Of a DNA stretch of 64,000 nt, positions 8,370 through 35,095 are shown one piece after another. Position 1 is the first letter of the stretch. The number at the start of each line of letters is the position of its first letter. Origin of the DNA: an uncultured Ruminococcus sp. (GTDB taxonomy: Bacteria; Bacillota; Clostridia; Oscillospirales; Acutalibacteraceae). The stretch lies in the NCBI GenBank assembly GCA_902786345.1, contig CADACB010000010.1:34723-98722 (forward strand). Direction: 5' to 3'. The position numbers and the translations under genes were made by a program. Below the pieces are notes generated by a model. It ran no database searches, was not told the DNA's origin, and saw only the letters and a program-made list of their open reading frames with translations.

Positions 8370-10343
8370 TTATACCTCCATAATGATAGGAAGAATCATA
8401 GGACTTCTTCTTGTTTTGTCATAAAGCAGCTTTGAAAGCTCATCCTTTACCGTATTTTTTATAACTCCCCATTCGTGAATTCCTTGTGATTCACAGTCTT
8501 CAAGTGTTTCTATTACGACACGTCTTGCATTATCCATAAGAGGCTCACTCTCTCTTACATATACGAAGCCTCTTGAAACTATATCAGGACCGGCAATAAT
8601 ATGTCCGTCCTCACCGTCAAGTGTAACTACAACAACTATAAGACCGTCCTGTCCAAGATGTTTTCTGTCACGCAGAACAATGCTGCCCACATCGCCTACT
8701 CCAAGTCCGTCAACAAGAACCTTTCCTGCCGGTATACTTGGCAGCTGTTTCATATTATCCTTGTTGATCTCAACAACATTTCCAATATCACCTATAAATA
8801 TATTTGATCTTGGCATTCCCATCTCCATTGCAAGCTGGGCGTGTTTTATAAGATGCTTTTGCTCACCGTGAACAGGAATAAAATACTTTGGCTTTGTAAG
8901 ACCGTGTATTATTTTAAGCTCTTCCTGACAAGCGTGTCCCGAAACGTGAACCTCATACATTGATTCATAAACAACCTTACAGCCGTGTTTCATAAGCTCA
9001 TTTACAACTGAACCTACAGCTTTTTCGTTTCCGGGTATAGGATTTGCCGATATTATTATATAATCCTCAGGACCTACCTCTACCTTTCTGTGATCAGAAT
9101 AAGCCATTCTGGAAAGAGCAGACATTGTTTCTCCCTGACTGCCCGTTGTTACAAGAACGATCTGATCCTTTGAGTAATGTCCGAGCATATCAATATCTAT
9201 TATCAGTCCGTCAGGAACATTAATATAACCAAGCTCTGACGCTATAGTCATATTATTTATCATACTTCTTCCCGAAAAAGCTACCTTTCTGCCATATTTC
9301 TGTGCACAATCAAGTATCTGCTGTATGCGTCCAAGATTAGAAGCAAACGTAGCTATTATTATACGGCTTTTTTCAGCCTCTTTAAATAACAGGTCAAAGG
9401 TATGTGCAACCTTCTGCTCTGTCATTGTATATCCGGGACGTTCGGCATTTGTAGACTCCGCAAGCAATGCAAGCACTCCGCTTTTTCCAAGCTCAGCAAA
9501 TCTTGCAAGATCTATCATTCCTCCTGTTGTAGGAGTGCAGTCTATCTTAAAATCACCTGTGTGTACGATAGTACCTGCGGGTGAATGAATAGCTATCGCT
9601 ACAGAATCCGGAATTGAATGGTTAACATGTATGAATTCTATCGACATACAGCCAAGCTTGATTCTCTGTCCGGGCTTTACTGTATTGAGCTTAGCTTTAC
9701 TGAAAAGATTATGCTCTTTAAGCTTACTGCCTACCAGTCCTAAAGTCAGCGGTGTTCCATAGATTGGAACATTTATTTTTCTGAGAAGATAAGGCAGTGA
9801 ACCAATATGGTCCTCGTGACCGTGAGTTAATACTACACCCTTGATTTTATCCTTATTACGCTCAATATAAGTAAAATCCGGAATAACAAGGTCCACTCCA
9901 AGCATATCTCCATCAGGAAATGCCATTCCGCAATCAAGCAAAAACATATCATTATCACATTCAAACAATGTGATATTTTTTCCAATTTCGTTCAAACCGC
10001 CCAGAAATGTTACTTTAACCGAATGATCTGACGGCTTGATATACTGTCTTCTTGACTGGAAATCTGAGCTGTGATGATACCTTGACTGTCTGTTTTTGTC
10101 ATTGACTTCTGTAAAACTTCTTTTTTCTTGTGAAAAAATTTTTTCGTATTTTCTGTTATTTTCCCCGATAGCCTGATCCGGAAATTTCTGAGCAGGAATT
10201 ACACGATCAAAAAGCCCCTTTGATTTTTTTTCGGGCATAGCCTTCTTATGCACCATTCTGCTGTTCTTTGAAAGTCTTGAGCCTGAAACACTCTTACCTC
10301 CGTTATTTCTCGGTGCATTTTTCCTGTTAAATTCTGATAACAC
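8370..10343 (-). CDS. rnj: Ribonuclease J with a basic N-terminal extension of about 100 aa
   Basis: Metallo-beta-lactamase motif HGHEDHIG plus beta-CASP and C-terminal domains. The GTG start at 10343 is preceded by GGAGG at about 9 nt. Confidence 0.9.
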   Translation of the reverse strand: MLSEFNRKNAPRNNGGKSVSGSRLSKNSRMVHKKAMPEKKSKGLFDRVIPAQKFPDQAIGENNRKYEKIFSQEKRSFTEVNDKNRQSRYHHSSDFQSRRQYIKPSDHSVKVTFLGGLNEIGKNITLFECDNDMFLLDCGMAFPDGDMLGVDLVIPDFTYIERNKDKIKGVVLTHGHEDHIGSLPYLLRKINVPIYGTPLTLGLVGSKLKEHNLFSKAKLNTVKPGQRIKLGCMSIEFIHVNHSIPDSVAIAIHSPAGTIVHTGDFKIDCTPTTGGMIDLARFAELGKSGVLALLAESTNAERPGYTMTEQKVAHTFDLLFKEAEKSRIIIATFASNLGRIQQILDCAQKYGRKVAFSGRSMINNMTIASELGYINVPDGLIIDIDMLGHYSKDQIVLVTTGSQGETMSALSRMAYSDHRKVEVGPEDYIIISANPIPGNEKAVGSVVNELMKHGCKVVYESMYEVHVSGHACQEELKIIHGLTKPKYFIPVHGEQKHLIKHAQLAMEMGMPRSNIFIGDIGNVVEINKDNMKQLPSIPAGKVLVDGLGVGDVGSIVLRDRKHLGQDGLIVVVVTLDGEDGHIIAGPDIVSRGFVYVRESEPLMDNARRVVIETLEDCESQGIHEWGVIKNTVKDELSKLLYDKTRRSPMILPIIMEV

Positions 10344-10548
10344 TAAAATTTACCTCCGTTTAAACAATATATAAATTATTAAAATCAAATAAAAAATATC
10401 GCCAAAGCGCCTATTGCTTCATAGCAATATTTACATCCCGAACACAATTATATATGTTATTTTACTATTCTAACCGGATTATGTCAATAGATTATTTCCC
10501 TGAAAAATTTTTTCAGAGAAAACAAACAGGATTATCACTATTATACTA

Positions 10549-13306: not shown

Positions 13307-13876
13307 ATGATTGGGAACGTGCCGAGCCGCAGAACATTAAGAACACAAGCGGCGATTCGCAACGCGTTTGCCGAGCTTTTGACCGAAAAGGAGCTGCACA
13401 AAATTACTGTGCAGGAACTTGCGGACAGAGCCGACGTTGGACGCGCGACGTTTTATAAGCATTATCTTGATATCTACGACCTTTATGAGAAAATTGAGAG
13501 CAATACGCTGACGGAAATTGCCGCGCTTGTGCTGAACACCGGAGAAGAGCCTGTTGAGGATTTCTTCAAAAAACTGCTCGATTACATCTCGAACAACCGG
13601 GCGGTATTCAAAATGATTTTCAGCCCGAACATCACCGCGCAGCTTTATGTCAAGCTGTCAGGAATGATTGAGGGAATGTTCCGCCAGGTGGAGAGCGAGA
13701 AAACCGGACGCAGCGTCGATGACAGGCGGCTTGAATTTATTAACGGCTACCGTGTGCAGGGCTGTATGTCCGTCATTTCAAAATGGGCACAAAATGATTT
13801 CGGCGATTCAACGGAGGATATTCTGAAAACCCTTTTGCTGCTCGACAACAGCATAACAAAGCTTCTGTATACTTAA
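13307..13876 (+). CDS. TetR/AcrR-family transcriptional regulator
   Basis: N-terminal HTH region (RTQAAIRNAFAELLTEKELHKITVQELADRADVGRATFYKHY). ATG at 13307 with GAAGGGAG RBS. The GC-rich sequence begins here. Confidence 0.85.
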   Translation: MIGNVPSRRTLRTQAAIRNAFAELLTEKELHKITVQELADRADVGRATFYKHYLDIYDLYEKIESNTLTEIAALVLNTGEEPVEDFFKKLLDYISNNRAVFKMIFSPNITAQLYVKLSGMIEGMFRQVESEKTGRSVDDRRLEFINGYRVQGCMSVISKWAQNDFGDSTEDILKTLLLLDNSITKLLYT

Positions 13877-13944: not shown

Positions 13945-16089
13945 TTATTTCTTCATATAGTTAACATAATCCTGAAATGTTCTGTTGCTATCCTTTGATA
14001 ACCAATCACAGCAATCAATGAATTCTCTTATACTCGATCCGTCCAGTTTACTGTTGCCGAGAAATACTTTTTCCCAATCCAAAAAGATTCTGTAATTATA
14101 CGGCTTTCCATATCCGAAGCCTATCAACCCCCATGATAAATAACCACGGAGAGTCTCTATATCGGCGTTGGGAAATTCCTTTTTCCAACTATTGTAGAAT
14201 CTGTTGAATCGATCTACTATAAATTCATGATTGCCTCTATAGAAATCAGCTTTATCCGGATTTGAATAATCGAAACGGTTTCTCTCATCACTGTTCCGCC
14301 ACTCCCTGTAGACCTCATAGTCCTTGTAACCGAAAGCGGGAAAAGACGCTTTGAAGGCTCTGTAAATATTTTTGTATTCGTCAAAGGTCATTTCAGGATG
14401 GTCCCACTTAAAAGTGTTATATTCCTTAGTGGGTGCATATGCCTTCTGTTCATCGTCCGAAAGATTGTTATAGATGGTAAAAATCTTGTTGCTGTAGTTA
14501 TAGCAGTTCACATAATTAGTTGTCAGCTTTATGCCCCAACCGTAGATATCTTCTCTACGGTATGTGTACACCTTAAAGCTCTGCTCCTCACATTTGGGGT
14601 CATAGATGTTGATTCCCTTTGCGTAAACGGTGCAGTCATACAGCAGTGCTCCATCAACCTTGCCGGCAAACTCAGTTCCGGCATCCTTTTCCTTTGTATC
14701 AAGGTTAGTGCTTGTCAGAAGATAGGCGGTGCCGCTGTTCGCCACATCAAAGGTGTATGCTAATGCACCATACTTTTTCAGGTAATCATACAGAGAGGTA
14801 TTGGGATATTTTTCGCGGACATAGCTTGCGAGCTGCTTGATTTCGTCGGTGGAGATTGTGCTCTTTTTGACATAGTCACCGGCGACAGATTTCATGTCCT
14901 TATAAAGATTAACGTTCTGCGAACGTCCGATAACATCGGTGAGCGACTTACTTGTCTTGAAAATCATCGTGCCGTTGTCGTGCTTTTGAAAGCTCTTGAC
15001 CCCTGTTGCTGCTGCAACGAGCATTTTAGAAGCATCGCTCGCGTCAAGAATTTCTCTGTTTTTGTCAAAGCTGTTATAAGCCGTTCTGAGCGCACCGTCA
15101 CCAAGTGCCTTTACATCAGCGTCTTTGAAATAGTAAACAGCGTCCGCTGCCCTCTGGCACTCCGCCAACAGAGAAACCGCGTATACATACTGTTTTGTCA
15201 GGTCTTCGGCCGCACCATACGCCTCGTTATACGCTTCGCTTTCTACCATGCAGCCTGCCGCCTTGTCGTTGTAAAGCAAATCAAACATACAGTCTGACAC
15301 ATACTTGTTGCTGCCGTCCATATAGTCCCTGATGACGGTGCAGTAATTTTTGACGTCTCTGAAATCAGCCGAATTTTTGAGTGTTGCAAGCTTCATCATC
15401 TTCTGCTGGTTGTTGAGGTCGTCGTCGGTTTCAACCGCGTAAACGTCCTTTGCAAAGGACTCCAGCACAGCGCTGAGGTTACGGAAATTTGTCTTAAGCT
15501 CACTGAGTTCGGTTTTGTTACCAAGCCACTTGGTGTTGACGTCAATGTTGTTGTTAAGATGCTTCAGCTCCGTCTGAATGTCGTCGAGCTTTTGATCCAT
15601 TTTGTCGAGCTTGTCGTTCATCGCCGCCATGGGGTCGCTGTTATTGTCAACATTCACATGGAACAATGTTTTGAAAGGTGCTACCAAAAGTCCTGCTCCG
15701 GGAAAAGCATTACCGAGTGTGCCAAAAGCTTCGTCAGCCATCGCAATGCCCGCCTTCTTACCGTAATCCTCCGCGCTGACAGCGGCGTAGCTTACCGCAC
15801 CGATGTTGCCGCCGTCAAGAAGCTCAACATAAGACTGCTGATTTGTTTCCGCCGCACTTACCGGAACGGGGGCAATTGCCGACGCGCTGGATAAAACCAT
15901 AATGGACGCAAGCAGTGCCGGGATAAAGCCCTTGCCGCCTGTTACCTCGGCAAGCATTTCGTCGGGGATTTCAATATCATATTCGTCGATTACCTGCGCA
16001 ATCTCTTCCTCGGTTTTGCAGGTAAATACCTTTGTCTTTTGCTCCTCGGTCAGTGTGTTCAAAAATTCGTTAGCATTGAAGTTCGTCAT
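13945..16089 (-). CDS. 714-aa secreted-protein candidate with a Nif11/double-glycine-type leader (predicted PCAT cargo); function of the mature part unknown
   Basis: N-terminus MTNFNANEFLNTLTEEQKTKVFTCKTEEEIAQVIDEYDIEIPDEMLAEVTGG, followed by the hydrophobic stretch KGFIPALLASIMVLSSASAIAPVPVSAAE. AGGAGG RBS precedes the start. It is adjacent to a C39-ABC exporter. Confidence 0.85.
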   Translation of the reverse strand: MTNFNANEFLNTLTEEQKTKVFTCKTEEEIAQVIDEYDIEIPDEMLAEVTGGKGFIPALLASIMVLSSASAIAPVPVSAAETNQQSYVELLDGGNIGAVSYAAVSAEDYGKKAGIAMADEAFGTLGNAFPGAGLLVAPFKTLFHVNVDNNSDPMAAMNDKLDKMDQKLDDIQTELKHLNNNIDVNTKWLGNKTELSELKTNFRNLSAVLESFAKDVYAVETDDDLNNQQKMMKLATLKNSADFRDVKNYCTVIRDYMDGSNKYVSDCMFDLLYNDKAAGCMVESEAYNEAYGAAEDLTKQYVYAVSLLAECQRAADAVYYFKDADVKALGDGALRTAYNSFDKNREILDASDASKMLVAAATGVKSFQKHDNGTMIFKTSKSLTDVIGRSQNVNLYKDMKSVAGDYVKKSTISTDEIKQLASYVREKYPNTSLYDYLKKYGALAYTFDVANSGTAYLLTSTNLDTKEKDAGTEFAGKVDGALLYDCTVYAKGINIYDPKCEEQSFKVYTYRREDIYGWGIKLTTNYVNCYNYSNKIFTIYNNLSDDEQKAYAPTKEYNTFKWDHPEMTFDEYKNIYRAFKASFPAFGYKDYEVYREWRNSDERNRFDYSNPDKADFYRGNHEFIVDRFNRFYNSWKKEFPNADIETLRGYLSWGLIGFGYGKPYNYRIFLDWEKVFLGNSKLDGSSIREFIDCCDWLSKDSNRTFQDYVNYMKK

Positions 16090-16168
16090 TTCGGTTACCT
16101 CCTAAATGTATTTTAAAATTATTTTGCTTAGGTTATGTTCAGGGTTGTTTTCCGTTCCCTGTGACTAT

Positions 16169-16197
16169 ATAGTAACACCATTTTTTAATAGTTTCAA
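16169..16197 (-). promoter_or_regulatory. Candidate promoter of the cargo gene
   Basis: On the minus strand: TTGAAA (16197-16192), 17-nt spacer, TACTAT (16174-16169) with TG upstream. It lies about 80 nt before the cargo ATG. Confidence 0.45.
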
Positions 16198-16217
16198 TCT
16201 TCAATGTACCCACGATT

Positions 16218-16263
16218 TGTCTACTTAGAGACACATTACAGACAAAGTGTCTATTTGTAGACA
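16218..16263. promoter_or_regulatory. Cluster of five TGTCT/AGACA pentamers (three inverted-repeat pairs) upstream of the cargo promoter
   Basis: TGTCT at 16218 and 16248; AGACA at 16229, 16240 and 16259. This gives TGTCT-N6-AGACA, AGACA-N3-TGTCT and TGTCTA-N4-TAGACA. Confidence 0.4.
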
Positions 16264-16268
16264 TATTG

Positions 16269-18464
16269 TTAATGAATTGTCTGATTATCCGTTCTCTGAC
16301 GGCTGACAAGCTCGGAAAACAGCCCGTTTTTCGCTGTCAGTTCTTCGTAGCTTCCTTCCTCGGCAACGGCGCCGTTGTCGAGCACCAGTATTCTGTCGCA
16401 ATGGCGTATTGTCGAAAGTCTGTGCGCGATAATGATACGCGTGCAGCCCATTTTATCAAGAGAATCGCTCACCTGACGCTGCGTGATGTTGTCGAGAGCG
16501 CTGGTTGCTTCGTCAAAAATCAGAATTTTCGGTTGTGAAACAACCGCCCTCGCAATCAAGATACGCTGCTTTTGTCCGCCAGAAATTCCCCCCTGCCCTG
16601 CTGACACAAGGGTGTGCATCCCCATCGGCATAGCACGGATATCGTCGGCGATTCCCGCAATTTCAGCAGCTTTCCATGCATCGTCAAGTGTCGCCTGCGG
16701 AAATGCTATAGTAATATTTTCAAATATGCTACCCTGAAACAGCTCGCCGTTTTGCATAACCGTACCGATTTTGCCGCGCAGAGAGCTTAGGTCGAGCAAA
16801 TCCAAGCTGTGTCCGTCGTAAGCAACCTCGCCGCGTTCGGGAGTGCGCAGGCCGAGCAGCAGCTTTACCAAGGTGGATTTGCCGCAGCCTGTTTTGCCGA
16901 CAACCGCGATATATTCCTTAGGGCGTATTTTCAAAGACAGGTTTTTAAATATATATGGAGTGTTCTCGCCGTAGCGGAAGTAGATATTATTCAGCTCCAC
17001 TGCTCCGCTCAAATCTGAAACAATCCGTCGGTCGCCGTATGCTTCGGGTTCTGTCTGCATGAATATGTCAAGCATTTGCAGCATGGGCGCAATTTTTCCT
17101 ACGGACACAAACGAATCCGACAGCAACTTTATCGCACCGAGTACCGTGCCGAACGCCACCGCGAACGCGATATAGGACGATTGCCCAACGCCGTAATCCA
17201 TCGCAATGTTGTACAAAACGATACTTGAAACAAGGCTTACCGCAAGGGTGATTACACCACTGATACGTGCGAAAAGCGGCGGCGAAAAGCTGAGCCGTCT
17301 GCTTTCGGAATACTCGCCGAGCCACTTTGCGAAGAAGCGTTTTTCAGCTCCCGAGAGCTTTATCTTCTGAATTCCGTTTATCACGTTATATCTGGTTTTG
17401 GCTTCTTTGGCGGAAAGTTGCAGCTTTTTGTTGTTAATTTTTGTCTGCACAACCGCAGAGAGCACGCCGAAGCCGATGGTGATCAGCAGTATTGACAGCG
17501 TCGGCAGGCCGAGCGGCGGCGCAATCCAAAATATTTGAACGATATACAAAAGCGACGCCAGCGCGGTCAGCCCAGTTCCCGCAACGGCAGAAATCAATAG
17601 TTCGCAAAGCTCGTCAACAGTGCTCGAAAAGCCCGCAAGCTCGCCCGGACTTACTCTTTCAAAAAAGTCAGAAGGAAGCCCCAGTATCCGCATCATCAAA
17701 GCCGAATGAACCGTTAAGGAAGTTTTGCCGCGGATTCTCTTTATCAGCGAGTCAACTACCGTGCGGATTAACTGAACCGAGATCACGGTACACAGCATGA
17801 AAATACCAATAAAAAAGAGTAATATGGTATTGCCGCTTGCCACTATGTCGCCGGTAAGCACTTTTACCGTCTGCGGAATCAGCAGCCCGACGGCTGTCAT
17901 GAGCAGTACGCAAAAAGCGAGATATACCCAATCTTTTGCGCGCATACAATCCTTTATGTAGTATAGAAATTCCTTTGAAGTCAGCTTTTTATGCGGAAGC
18001 GGCTTGTAAAAACAATAGGCTTCCGTTTCAAACAACGCCGCCGTTTTGCGGTTTACCCTTACGGTACTTCCCAAATGGTTTTTAAAGCTGTAATGTGTGC
18101 CGAATTTATCGGGTAAGAGAACAACGGGCTCGCCGTTGTCTTTTCTGTGTGTAAGTAATACGCCGTAAGCATCCTTGTACCACTCACCATCCAAAAGGAC
18201 TGTACGCTTCATAACACCGTAGTACCGCAAGCTGTAGTTGAGCTGTTCGCCGCTGTCGGTGATAGAATCCGGAAACTTCACGGGCTTTAGGTGAAAATAT
18301 TTTAAAATCTCGTCAATGGCGCGTTCGGCGATAATGCTTTCGTCAAGCAATTCGTCTGCCGTTTGCTGTCCATAAACAATACCCGCTGCCTGAAGGAAGG
18401 TGTTTTCCAACAACTGTTGGTCTTGCTCCTTCCGCTCGTTTATTTGTTTTTCAAATAAATTCAT
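16269..18464 (-). CDS. ABC exporter (permease plus ATPase) with a non-peptidase N-terminal domain; NHLM-type second transporter
   Basis: 731 aa. The N-terminal domain of about 170 aa has no Cys/His C39 motifs. It has a 6-TM region, Walker A GKTGCGKST, signature ISGGQKQR and Walker B ILIFDEATSALD. AAGGAG RBS. Confidence 0.9.
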   Translation of the reverse strand: MNLFEKQINERKEQDQQLLENTFLQAAGIVYGQQTADELLDESIIAERAIDEILKYFHLKPVKFPDSITDSGEQLNYSLRYYGVMKRTVLLDGEWYKDAYGVLLTHRKDNGEPVVLLPDKFGTHYSFKNHLGSTVRVNRKTAALFETEAYCFYKPLPHKKLTSKEFLYYIKDCMRAKDWVYLAFCVLLMTAVGLLIPQTVKVLTGDIVASGNTILLFFIGIFMLCTVISVQLIRTVVDSLIKRIRGKTSLTVHSALMMRILGLPSDFFERVSPGELAGFSSTVDELCELLISAVAGTGLTALASLLYIVQIFWIAPPLGLPTLSILLITIGFGVLSAVVQTKINNKKLQLSAKEAKTRYNVINGIQKIKLSGAEKRFFAKWLGEYSESRRLSFSPPLFARISGVITLAVSLVSSIVLYNIAMDYGVGQSSYIAFAVAFGTVLGAIKLLSDSFVSVGKIAPMLQMLDIFMQTEPEAYGDRRIVSDLSGAVELNNIYFRYGENTPYIFKNLSLKIRPKEYIAVVGKTGCGKSTLVKLLLGLRTPERGEVAYDGHSLDLLDLSSLRGKIGTVMQNGELFQGSIFENITIAFPQATLDDAWKAAEIAGIADDIRAMPMGMHTLVSAGQGGISGGQKQRILIARAVVSQPKILIFDEATSALDNITQRQVSDSLDKMGCTRIIIAHRLSTIRHCDRILVLDNGAVAEEGSYEELTAKNGLFSELVSRQRTDNQTIH

Positions 18465-34108: not shown

Positions 34109-35095
34109 TCAAAGAAATTGTGATCTGAGTTCCTCGGGAGACTGCCTGCAAAGATAAGACGGCGGAATATCAAGAACTGTTTTACAGCCTCTTGCACCTT
34201 CATCAAACATTTTCTTTAATGCCCTTGCATACGCGATTATAACACTTGTTGTGAATTCGGGATTTGAATCAAGCTTTATACTATACTCTATAATATGCTT
34301 GTTTTCTTTGTTTACACCTGTTTTACCGGATCTGAATACAAAACCTCCGTGTGACATACCGCTGTGATCTTTTATAAATTCATCCTCATCTATGAAATGT
34401 ACTACTGTATTGTAATCAGCAAAATAATTAGGCATTTCTTTGATTTCTTTTTCAACCATTGCAGCATCCGCACCCGGCTCAAGAACAACAAAACATTCTC
34501 TTATATGCTTGTCTCTTGTTTTAAGCTCCGGATTTTTTCCGCTTCTTACAGCTTCGAGTGCTTCTTCTGACGGGATAGTATATTGTTTTGCATTTTTTAC
34601 ACCTTTGATCCTGCGAACCGCATCAGAATGTCCCTGACTTACACCCTTTCCCCAGAATGTATAATCTTTTCCGTCAGGAAGAATTGCATTTGCATACACC
34701 CTGTTTAGCGAAAACATACCCGGATCCCAGCCTACAGCTATAAATGCAAGATGTCCCCCCTCTTTTGCAGCAGCGTCAACATTGCTGAAATGCTCCGGAA
34801 TTTTTGCATGTGTATCGAAGCTGTCTATAACATTAAACAGCTTTGCATATTTTGGTGTCTGAACCGGAAGATCGGTTGCACTTCCTCCGCACAGAACCAA
34901 TACGTCAATTTTATCTTTCCAGTCTTCTATTACATCTGCACTTAAAACCGGTACTCCGGCAGTCAAAATTTTCACATCATCAGGATCTCGTCTTGTGAAT
35001 ACGGCAGCCAGCTCCATATCATCGGAATCTGCAACAGCTATTTCTGTTCCCTTGCCTATATTTCCATAACCTAAAATTCCTATTCTTGTTTTCAC
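34109..35095 (-). CDS. ddh: meso-Diaminopimelate D-dehydrogenase
   Basis: GILGYGNIGKG Rossmann motif and GWDPGMFSLNRVYANAIL...FWGKGVSQGHSDAVRRIKGV closely resemble Corynebacterium Ddh as I remember it. Confidence 0.88.
   Translation of the reverse strand: MKTRIGILGYGNIGKGTEIAVADSDDMELAAVFTRRDPDDVKILTAGVPVLSADVIEDWKDKIDVLVLCGGSATDLPVQTPKYAKLFNVIDSFDTHAKIPEHFSNVDAAAKEGGHLAFIAVGWDPGMFSLNRVYANAILPDGKDYTFWGKGVSQGHSDAVRRIKGVKNAKQYTIPSEEALEAVRSGKNPELKTRDKHIRECFVVLEPGADAAMVEKEIKEMPNYFADYNTVVHFIDEDEFIKDHSGMSHGGFVFRSGKTGVNKENKHIIEYSIKLDSNPEFTTSVIIAYARALKKMFDEGARGCKTVLDIPPSYLCRQSPEELRSQFL

Follow-up and report, generated by a model that had tools for sequence, protein, structure and literature searches.

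A 64,000-nucleotide stretch of DNA from an uncultured Ruminococcus sp. (contig CADACB010000010.1, forward-strand positions 34,723 to 98,722; referred to below as the window) carries on its minus strand, at positions 13945-16089, a gene for a 714-residue protein in which a divergent double-glycine leader is followed directly by a segment resembling a Sec-type signal peptide. The gene lies directly downstream of a three-gene cassette encoding a peptidase-containing ATP-binding cassette transporter (PCAT), a second ABC transporter (ABC2) and a truncated HlyD-like accessory protein (mini-HlyD). This arrangement is read here, with some reserve and from sequence comparisons, as a two-part, PCAT-dependent N-terminal signal by which large proteins are secreted or brought to the surface. 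The parts of this reading differ in strength: processing of the 714-residue protein by the PCAT is probable, and the proposal that the PCAT itself is the translocon for the bulk of the protein is tentative, falling somewhat short of an even chance. The protein, termed the cargo, would be the precursor of a secreted or cell-surface protein from a Ruminococcaceae family that is normally Sec-exported and that appears to be controlled by an adjacent TetR regulator.

The minus-strand translation of 13945-16089 gives 714 residues exactly as quoted in an earlier reading of this DNA made from the letters alone (the sequence-only reading); the coordinates and translation stand, and the strand is minus, the plus-strand frame being riddled with stop codons. 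From the N terminus, the precursor comprises the leader, the signal-peptide-like helix, a helical bundle, an α/β domain and aromatic repeats, as judged from the translation, from 19 close and 114 representative homologues, and from a full-length AlphaFold2 (AF2) model with a pLDDT of 75. Initiation at M45 (MLAEVTGGKGF...) instead of M1 would place K53 and a hydrophobic stretch shortly after the start and thus resemble an ordinary Sec signal peptide. However, a perfect AGGAGG lies 8 nt 5′ of M1, in a region that is kept in the locus of the closest relative, no Shine-Dalgarno sequence precedes M45, residues 1-44 are conserved at the protein level in at least 20 homologues, and M45 itself is replaced by I, Y or E in homologues. 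A mis-called start was rejected on these grounds as having a negligible probability; the start codon is M1.

Residues 1-52 (15934-16089, minus strand) end in TGG (residues 50-52), with V at -4, L at -7 and I at -12, as had been read directly from the sequence. Position -15 is D rather than a hydrophobic residue, with I at -14 and Y at -16, and three of the four hydrophobic positions are satisfied. The segment is acidic (25% D/E), carries a net charge of about -9 ahead of the hydrophobic helix, and is predicted by AF2 to fold into three short helices. The GG is invariant in an alignment of 15 leader sequences. The sequence-only reading had assigned these residues to the Nif11 type, and this assignment holds in lineage and not in direct matching. 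No match of the window leader to the Nif11 models (TIGR03798 and PF07862, with curated cut-offs of 32.3 and 23.8 bits) or to NHLP models was found at E <= 10; residues 40-52 match only the class II bacteriocin leader model TIGR01847, at 12.6-12.7 bits, below its cut-off of 15.7 bits. Sub-threshold matches to TIGR01847 are also seen for five of 11 homologous leaders. Homologous leaders of 66 residues, which contain a 12-residue insertion, match TIGR03798 over its full length at 16-26 bits (E values down to 8e-6) and PF07862 over the full model length at 18-20 bits, in both cases sub-threshold. These full-length matches of the longer variants make Nif11 homology of the window leader likely, by a route that is transitive and sub-threshold. 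Residues 1-52 are thus likely to be a divergent, shortened Nif11-type double-glycine leader, a placement that rests on transitive homology rather than on membership at a curated threshold.

The leader is conserved beyond the level of the cargo. Its identity to the window leader is 29-69% where the mature parts are only 19-48% identical, and in distant members it is 40-69% identical where the mature parts are 19-27% identical or unrelated. In the window precursor, 662 residues follow the GG, in contrast to Nif11 precursors with short cores. A search with a leader hidden Markov model (HMM) and a regular expression found no other leader-like or double-glycine-leader open reading frame (ORF) in the 64-kb window, and a small peptide near the cassette as an alternative PCAT substrate was rejected on this basis. 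No RiPP-modifying genes (LanM, cyclodehydratase or radical-SAM) were found between positions 10 and 24 kb of the window.

Residues 53-80 (15850-15933, minus strand; KGFIPALLASIMVLSSASAIAPVPVSAA) constitute the second part of the proposed signal. They comprise a K-G-F-x-P motif, a hydrophobic helix and an AXA-type site, V77-S78-A79 or S78-A79-A80. Among the first 87 residues, the most hydrophobic 15-residue window begins at residue 55, with a mean Kyte-Doolittle value of 2.05, and AF2 places a helix at residues 55-69. This segment aligns with the N-terminal Sec signal peptide of leaderless homologues, which bears out the earlier description of a signal-peptide- or transmembrane-like stretch after the GG. 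The K/R-G-F-x-P motif, the hydrophobic helix and the small residues after the GG are kept in every leader-bearing homologue. In the precursor, 52 residues with a net charge of -9 precede the hydrophobic region, and a positively charged N terminus arises only after cleavage at the GG. Prepilin-like processing, in which a leader ending in G precedes a hydrophobic helix, was considered and rejected: position +5 is not Glu, the leader is both long and acidic, and the enzyme linked to it is of the C39-ABC type instead of a prepilin peptidase.

The cassette genes follow the order mini-HlyD, PCAT, ABC2, cargo, all on the minus strand. The PCAT (18476-20656; 726 residues from the ATG at 20656) contains a C39 peptidase domain, a permease and an ATPase, and matches TIGR03796 at 845.0 bits (cut-off 853.3) and Peptidase_C39 with an E value of 1.7e-31, confirming the earlier identification of this neighbouring ORF as a C39-ABC transporter. 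Over 137 residues without gaps, the C39 domain (first 150 residues) is 69% identical to LahT150 (PDB 6MPZ), and its catalytic residues Q22, C28, H102 and D118 are present and align with those of LahT150 and PCAT1. ABC2 (16269-18464; 731 residues) comprises a permease and an ATPase without a peptidase domain and matches TIGR03797 at 645.9 bits (cut-off 709.4). The mini-HlyD protein (20661-21083; about 140 residues from M39 of a 178-residue ORF) consists of an N-terminal transmembrane helix and a short domain, and matches the first 59 positions of TIGR03794 (E value 5e-7, 28.9 bits, cut-off 156.2); the same length and position are found in five further loci (L021, L022, L028, L029 and L031). These three families are by far the best for the respective proteins, which are therefore regarded as closely related to the curated equivalogs while falling just outside them. 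Of the two ABC subunits, only the PCAT has an active C39 domain. In ABC2, the N-terminal 170 residues (17955-18464, minus strand) show no similarity to C39 domains, Pfam families or any PDB chain, and their identity as a degenerate C39-like domain was rejected for want of detectable similarity; this region could take part in substrate handling. As read from the sequence, the Walker A, Walker B, signature and H-loop motifs are canonical and intact in both PCAT and ABC2, which suggests that transport activity, and not merely proteolysis, is under selection. Between leader-bearing loci, PCAT and ABC2 are 55-80% identical, and all three cassette genes are strictly conserved and syntenic.

A word-indexed search returned 19 homologues of the cargo, none of them annotated, and an exhaustive profile search returned 114 representative clusters. 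Genome matches come from Ruminococcus sp., Ruminococcaceae, Acutalibacteraceae and similar rumen or faecal Clostridia, and a scan of GTDB genomes recovered leaderless homologues only, with no leader-bearing genome. About 90% of the family has no leader and begins with an ordinary Sec signal peptide (MKKTNNIKTRIIAGLLS...SASA-AE); the leader is present in nine representative clusters and in further metagenomic genes. In many leaderless homologues (P0009, P0024, P0025, P0027, P0038, P0040, P0042, P0066 and others), Asn/Thr-rich in-frame extensions are annotated before the MKK... signal peptide; start codons mis-called within CA-rich 5′ untranslated regions (UTRs) are the probable cause.

The distribution of the leader follows that of the cassette. 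At all eight independent leader-bearing loci with enough flanking DNA, the cassette lies within 7 kb (the loci counted being the window, L001-3, L021, L022/23, L024, L028, L029/30 and L031), and it is found at none of the nine independent leaderless loci (L006-L020). Loci with short flanks (L005, L025-27 and L032) were left out as uninformative. An earlier count of six versus nine loci gave a Fisher p value of 2e-4 for the co-occurrence. The sequence-only reading had held that homologues routinely lacking the leader and lying away from C39-ABC transporters would speak against a PCAT link. Such homologues make up about 90% of the family; the coupling of leader and cassette is nonetheless all-or-none, and it supports the link to the PCAT rather than refuting it. 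Judging from the sequence identities of leaders, transporters and mature parts across loci, leader and transporter evolve as a unit, apart from the cargo.

The closest homologue, P0002 (78% identical; L007:356-1936 and L008:597-2177), provides a natural experiment. Its locus has the same STAS-gene-TetR synteny, and the promoter, ribosome-binding site and start codon are nearly identical (window positions 15800-16300 compared). The 4.8-kb cassette is absent, with the STAS terminator abutting the promoter, and leader codons 21-49 are missing from the gene through a clean 87-nt deletion that keeps the reading frame. In addition, the GG has become NG, and five substitutions to K/R have changed the net charge before the helix from -9 to +6, a textbook Sec n-region. 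Loss of the leader and gain of lysines after loss of the cassette indicate that the cargo is Sec-compatible and that the leader is probably Sec-incompatible. The P0002 sequence looks like a reversion to the Sec route caught in progress. Judged by this comparison, the hydrophobic segment that follows the leader in the window protein serves as a Sec signal peptide when no leader precedes it, and the leader appears not to be tolerated without the cassette. The earlier claim that the leader is tied to the adjacent PCAT is thus upheld by the co-occurrence, by the joint loss in the closest relative and by the 69% identity of the C39 domain to LahT150.

The leader and helix also behave as a portable module, in that the same pair precedes unrelated cargoes in precursors of about 140 to 1030 residues. 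These include a Chlam_PMP-repeat protein of 1030 residues (L024) and the ChW-repeat proteins P0017, P0047 and P0105. Several variants of these genes were observed. A leader-bearing gene at L021:10001-10724 is frameshifted after 91 codons, and its continuation, a different cargo type, resembles the C-terminal part of an α/β-hydrolase. In L029, two tandem small genes (9511-9969 and 10001-10423) encode proteins of 152 and 140 residues with leader and helix, located 3′ of a miniHlyD-PCAT-ABC2-TetR block; the tails of both end in a conserved HPGEMGYGY motif. In L031 (5614-8823), a single in-frame TAG divides a leader-bearing gene for a PMP-repeat protein of about 1070 residues into ORFs of 112 and 937 residues, with the cassette just downstream; the TAG could reflect a pseudogene, a sequencing error or read-through.

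The proposed pathway has three steps. In the first, which is well supported, the C39 domain would bind the acidic, helical Nif11-type leader and cut after G52. In the second, for which the support is weaker, the new N terminus (K53-G-F-x-P and the hydrophobic helix) would enter the transporter and partition into the membrane N-in, and the PCAT/ABC2 heterodimer would thread the remaining chain out unfolded, similar to HlyB-type ABC exporters with large substrates. In the third, signal peptidase I would cut at VSA/SAA, after A79 or A80, to free a protein of about 635 residues; alternatively, the helix may be retained as a membrane anchor. Generalized beyond the window, a Gram-positive subgroup of PCATs, comprising a C39-PCAT, ABC2 and mini-HlyD, would perform protein secretion in parallel with Sec, recognizing and cutting a Nif11-type double-glycine leader, placing the helix behind it in the membrane and threading cargoes of up to about 1000 residues N terminus first, and genes would switch routes by gaining or losing a leader of 50 residues. 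This generalization is offered as a conjecture to which slightly less than even weight is given.

Several observations weigh against PCAT-dependent export. Characterized PCAT cargoes span about 25-115 residues. The cavity of PCAT1, of about 15,000 cubic angstroms, fits a 66-residue cargo (PMC6959990), and export of MccV by its PCAT drops sharply at about 116 residues (PMC10231218); given these limits, a chain of 630 residues could be threaded only by some other mode of action. A complete Sec-type signal peptide, signal peptidase site included, is kept in all leader-bearing proteins, as would be expected if Sec were still the translocon. In a 1024-residue leader-bearing protein (L028:1208-4279), the post-GG helix ends in a lipobox-like LSSC, which suggests lipoprotein-type processing following PCAT cleavage. 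As to the leader and cassette themselves, the window leader has no Nif11 or NHLP match and reaches the cut-off of no curated leader model, and PCAT, ABC2 and mini-HlyD all miss their equivalog cut-offs, the first two just below. One leader-bearing gene, P0017 (L005), has no cassette in the 4.5 kb upstream, on a contig that ends 280 bp downstream, and loci from related metagenomes are not fully independent samples.

The size limits and the retained signal peptide lead to the most serious rival, in which the PCAT acts as a gate for Sec. The acidic leader would mask the signal peptide, the C39 cut would expose K53 and the helix, SecA/SecYEG would translocate the chain and signal peptidase I would release it; the ABC part would serve in substrate holding and hand-over or in export of the freed leader. 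This scheme accounts for the homology of the post-GG segment to the true Sec signal peptide of leaderless relatives, with its AXA site kept, and for the P0002 lineage, in which leader deletion and new lysines turned the segment back into a standard signal peptide. It is also favoured by the cargo sizes known for PCATs (PMC6959990, PMC10231218) and by the LSSC after the helix in L028. What it explains poorly is the strict conservation of the whole cassette, including both ATPase domains, ABC2 and mini-HlyD, at 55-80% identity; were proteolysis the sole requirement, one would expect the transport parts to decay or a C39 protein on its own to be enough. The same module, moreover, precedes small cargoes that a PCAT could carry conventionally. 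On balance, protease-gated Sec export is considered unlikely, with a probability that is still substantial.

Portability and unusual conservation of the post-GG segment (KGFxP..A..IM.FSS) across unrelated cargoes, beyond what is usual for a signal peptide, could also be explained by the reverse order of events. Here the helix would be an internal signal-anchor: Sec would export the large domain, signal peptidase would release it, and the remaining 80-residue stub would be the PCAT substrate, cut by C39 at the GG so that a hydrophobic peptide of about 27 residues (KGF...VSA) is exported as a signal or antimicrobial. Enterococcal pheromones, which derive from lipoprotein signal peptides, offer an analogy, and a 27-residue peptide is within the usual size of PCAT cargoes. 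A leader harmless to Sec, however, would not predict the leader deletion and charge reversal that followed cassette loss, 52 residues with a net charge of -9 to -12 before the helix disfavour N-in insertion, and no receptor/kinase pair or immunity gene was found beside the cassette. This order is judged very improbable. Even less credence is given to coincidence, in which the extension is a non-functional relic, the protein exits by Sec in any case and the PCAT serves some other, unannotated peptide. The failure of the window leader against curated HMMs and the roughly 90% of the family that need no PCAT would fit such a relic; the strict co-occurrence of leader and cassette, their joint loss at a syntenic locus, leader conservation far beyond the cargo level and the lack of another double-glycine-leader ORF in the window would not. 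The two-part, PCAT-dependent signal is retained as the preferred reading.

The cargo following this signal can be divided into three regions. Residues 106-368 (14986-15774, minus strand) form a conserved helical bundle in the AF2 model, with weak Foldseek matches only; it includes an FPGAxxLVxPFKxLF motif and a coiled-coil-like stretch, MNDKLDKMDQKLDDIQTELKHLNNNI, that begins at residue 157 and gives only weak coiled-coil Pfam matches. Residues 373-545 (14455-14973, minus strand) form a conserved α/β domain, the most conserved part of the family, with a pLDDT above 90 within the full model and of 90.6 when modelled alone. Residues 546-714 (13948-14454, minus strand) form a variable, helical C-terminal region, in place of which homologues have ChW repeats. 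As the sequence-only reading had noted, this part is rich in aromatic residues (22.5% F/W/Y versus 13.3% in the whole protein). The internal duplication noted at residues 569 and 625 is real and is better read as decayed copies of an 18-residue aromatic repeat, FxDYLxW(K/R)xxFPxxD(V/I)K, which was detected with a repeat HMM built from P0014. The window protein contains one clear copy (i-E 7.7e-7) and several degenerate ones within residues 569-709. In P0014, residues 576-753 comprise eight to nine perfect tandem copies of the repeat. The repeat matches no Pfam family and could serve wall or glycan binding.

Searches of the cargo against Pfam and NCBIfam gave weak coiled-coil noise only, and its profile gave nothing meaningful against PDB sequences. 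Foldseek searches of the full model against the PDB and BFVD gave nothing at E < 0.02; the non-significant matches include Vip3 (E values of about 0.03-0.3, TM-score < 0.2) and ClyA (about 0.7), with a best E value of 0.028 and TM-scores of at most 0.18. With the α/β domain model, the best PDB match has an E value of 0.03 (NTF2-like or CaMKII hub, TM-score of about 0.2), and NTF2-like matches range from 0.03 to 0.4. The Vip3, ClyA/Hbl and NTF2-like identities were not adopted, there being no match of significance by sequence or by fold. A toxin or bacteriocin role, which had been suggested earlier together with a fold search of the residues after the leader, finds no support in these Pfam, PDB-sequence or fold comparisons. 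The domain partners observed in relatives (ChW, Listeria-Bacteroides repeat, PMP, PKD and fn3) suggest that the protein is secreted or located at the cell surface.

The cargo gene has its own promoter and 5′ UTR of about 180 bp (16090-16268, minus strand), comprising two exact palindromes, a -35/-10-like site (16197-16169) and the AGGAGG; the whole stretch is conserved in the cassette-less locus of the relative. The palindromes, TGTCTN6AGACA at 16218-16233 and 16248-16263, are confined to the cargo promoter, are likewise kept in the relative, and are likely operators of the adjacent regulator. This regulator (TetR_N and TetR_C_8 by Pfam; 13307-13876, plus strand) is convergent with the cargo gene and adjoins homologues with and without the leader. 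The cassette has its own promoter-like sequence, TGTTATAAT, between 21147 and 21084. Its upstream edge is marked by the terminator of the upstream STAS gene (21148-21179, minus strand); a terminator homologous to it lies directly before the cargo promoter in L008. The STAS gene (21194-21493) and a gene for a SpoIIE phosphatase with HATPase_c (21661-23625) form a partner-switching-type pair that flanks the locus. In six genome loci a STAS gene likewise adjoins leaderless homologues on their upstream side, which places it in the conserved neighbourhood rather than in the export cassette. The GC content is 0.45-0.50 from about 14.5 to 21 kb, covering the cassette and the 5′ two-thirds of the cargo gene, and about 0.39 in the flanks, a difference that is compatible with horizontal acquisition. 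Resolvase or integrase fragments are found near L001 and L021.

PCATs are regarded as peptide exporters. The alternating-access model drawn from structures of PCAT1 places the entire cargo inside the transmembrane cavity, and in experiments with the MccV system export breaks down beyond about 100 residues. The loci described here couple LahT-related PCAT cassettes with intact active sites to precursors of 140-1030 residues that also bear a Sec-type signal peptide. Should these proteins be moved by the PCAT, the present size limit and mechanism would need revision, and the module would represent a simple, portable secretion tag for Gram-positive anaerobes. If the PCAT merely unmasks a Sec signal peptide, the system would represent a novel, protease-licensed form of Sec export. 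Matched natural pairs at the same locus, with leader and cassette or with neither, are available in the family, and its protease has a crystallized relative, 69% identical, for which assays exist.

Autotransporters provide a partial parallel, in that their extended signal peptide region is an extra conserved segment ahead of a normal Sec signal peptide on large surface proteins; those extensions differ in being basic, in not being cleaved at a GG and in having no link to an ABC exporter. Literature searches for a double-glycine leader followed by a signal peptide, or for a protein-sized cargo of a Gram-positive PCAT, found no description in the collection of papers covered, which is not proof of absence. 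The individual parts of the system are known; it is set apart by three linked features, the protein-sized cargo, the Sec-type signal peptide directly after the GG and the truncated HlyD. Close to it are NHLP and Nif11-derived peptide (N11P) systems, which use a three-gene TIGR03794/TIGR03796/TIGR03797 exporter (Haft et al. 2010, PMC2887384). With these the window shares all three transporter families, their gene order, a double-glycine leader of Nif11 lineage and a cargo gene adjoining the exporter. The cargoes of NHLP/N11P systems, however, are short core peptides that are usually modified by nearby RiPP enzymes, whereas here the cargo is 660 residues (60-950 in relatives) with no modification enzyme nearby, a signal-peptide-like helix follows the GG, the HlyD is cut to about 140 residues, and neither the window leader nor either of the ABC proteins reaches its curated cut-off.

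Similar differences are observed with respect to individual PCATs. LahT150, from the rumen Lachnospiraceae C6A11, removes Nif11-type leaders at the GG from many substrates and tolerates any P′ sequence (PMC6363468). The LahT/LahA system (Bobeica et al. 2019, PMC6363468; PDB 6MPZ) shares with the window the 69%-identical C39 domain and Nif11-type double-glycine substrates; the LahA cores, in contrast, are lanthipeptides of about 20-30 residues, with no signal peptide after the GG and no protein-sized cargo reported. The PCATs of class II bacteriocins, microcins and competence peptides, represented by the PCAT1-CtA, CvaB-MccV and ComA-ComC pairs, likewise combine a double-glycine leader, hydrophobic residues at -4, -7 and -12, and an active C39 domain fused to an ABC exporter, and differ in that the transporters are homodimers with cargoes below about 100 residues (PMC6959990, PMC10231218). 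A precedent for large cargoes is found in type I secretion of RTX proteins, in which HlyB-type ABC exporters of the same clade thread unfolded proteins of at least 1000 residues; the window PCAT matches the HlyB-type model TIGR01846 at 364 bits. The RTX systems differ in their C-terminal, uncleaved signal, their inactive peptidase domain, their Gram-negative setting and their full-length HlyD and TolC. The nearest reported case is MAM of Faecalibacterium, a non-bacteriocin envelope protein from the Oscillospirales with a double-glycine leader, for which processing by a PCAT and export to the surface have been proposed (PMC12184118). MAM is 135 residues in length and has no signal-peptide-like helix after the GG (PMC12184118), in contrast to the precursor encoded in the window.

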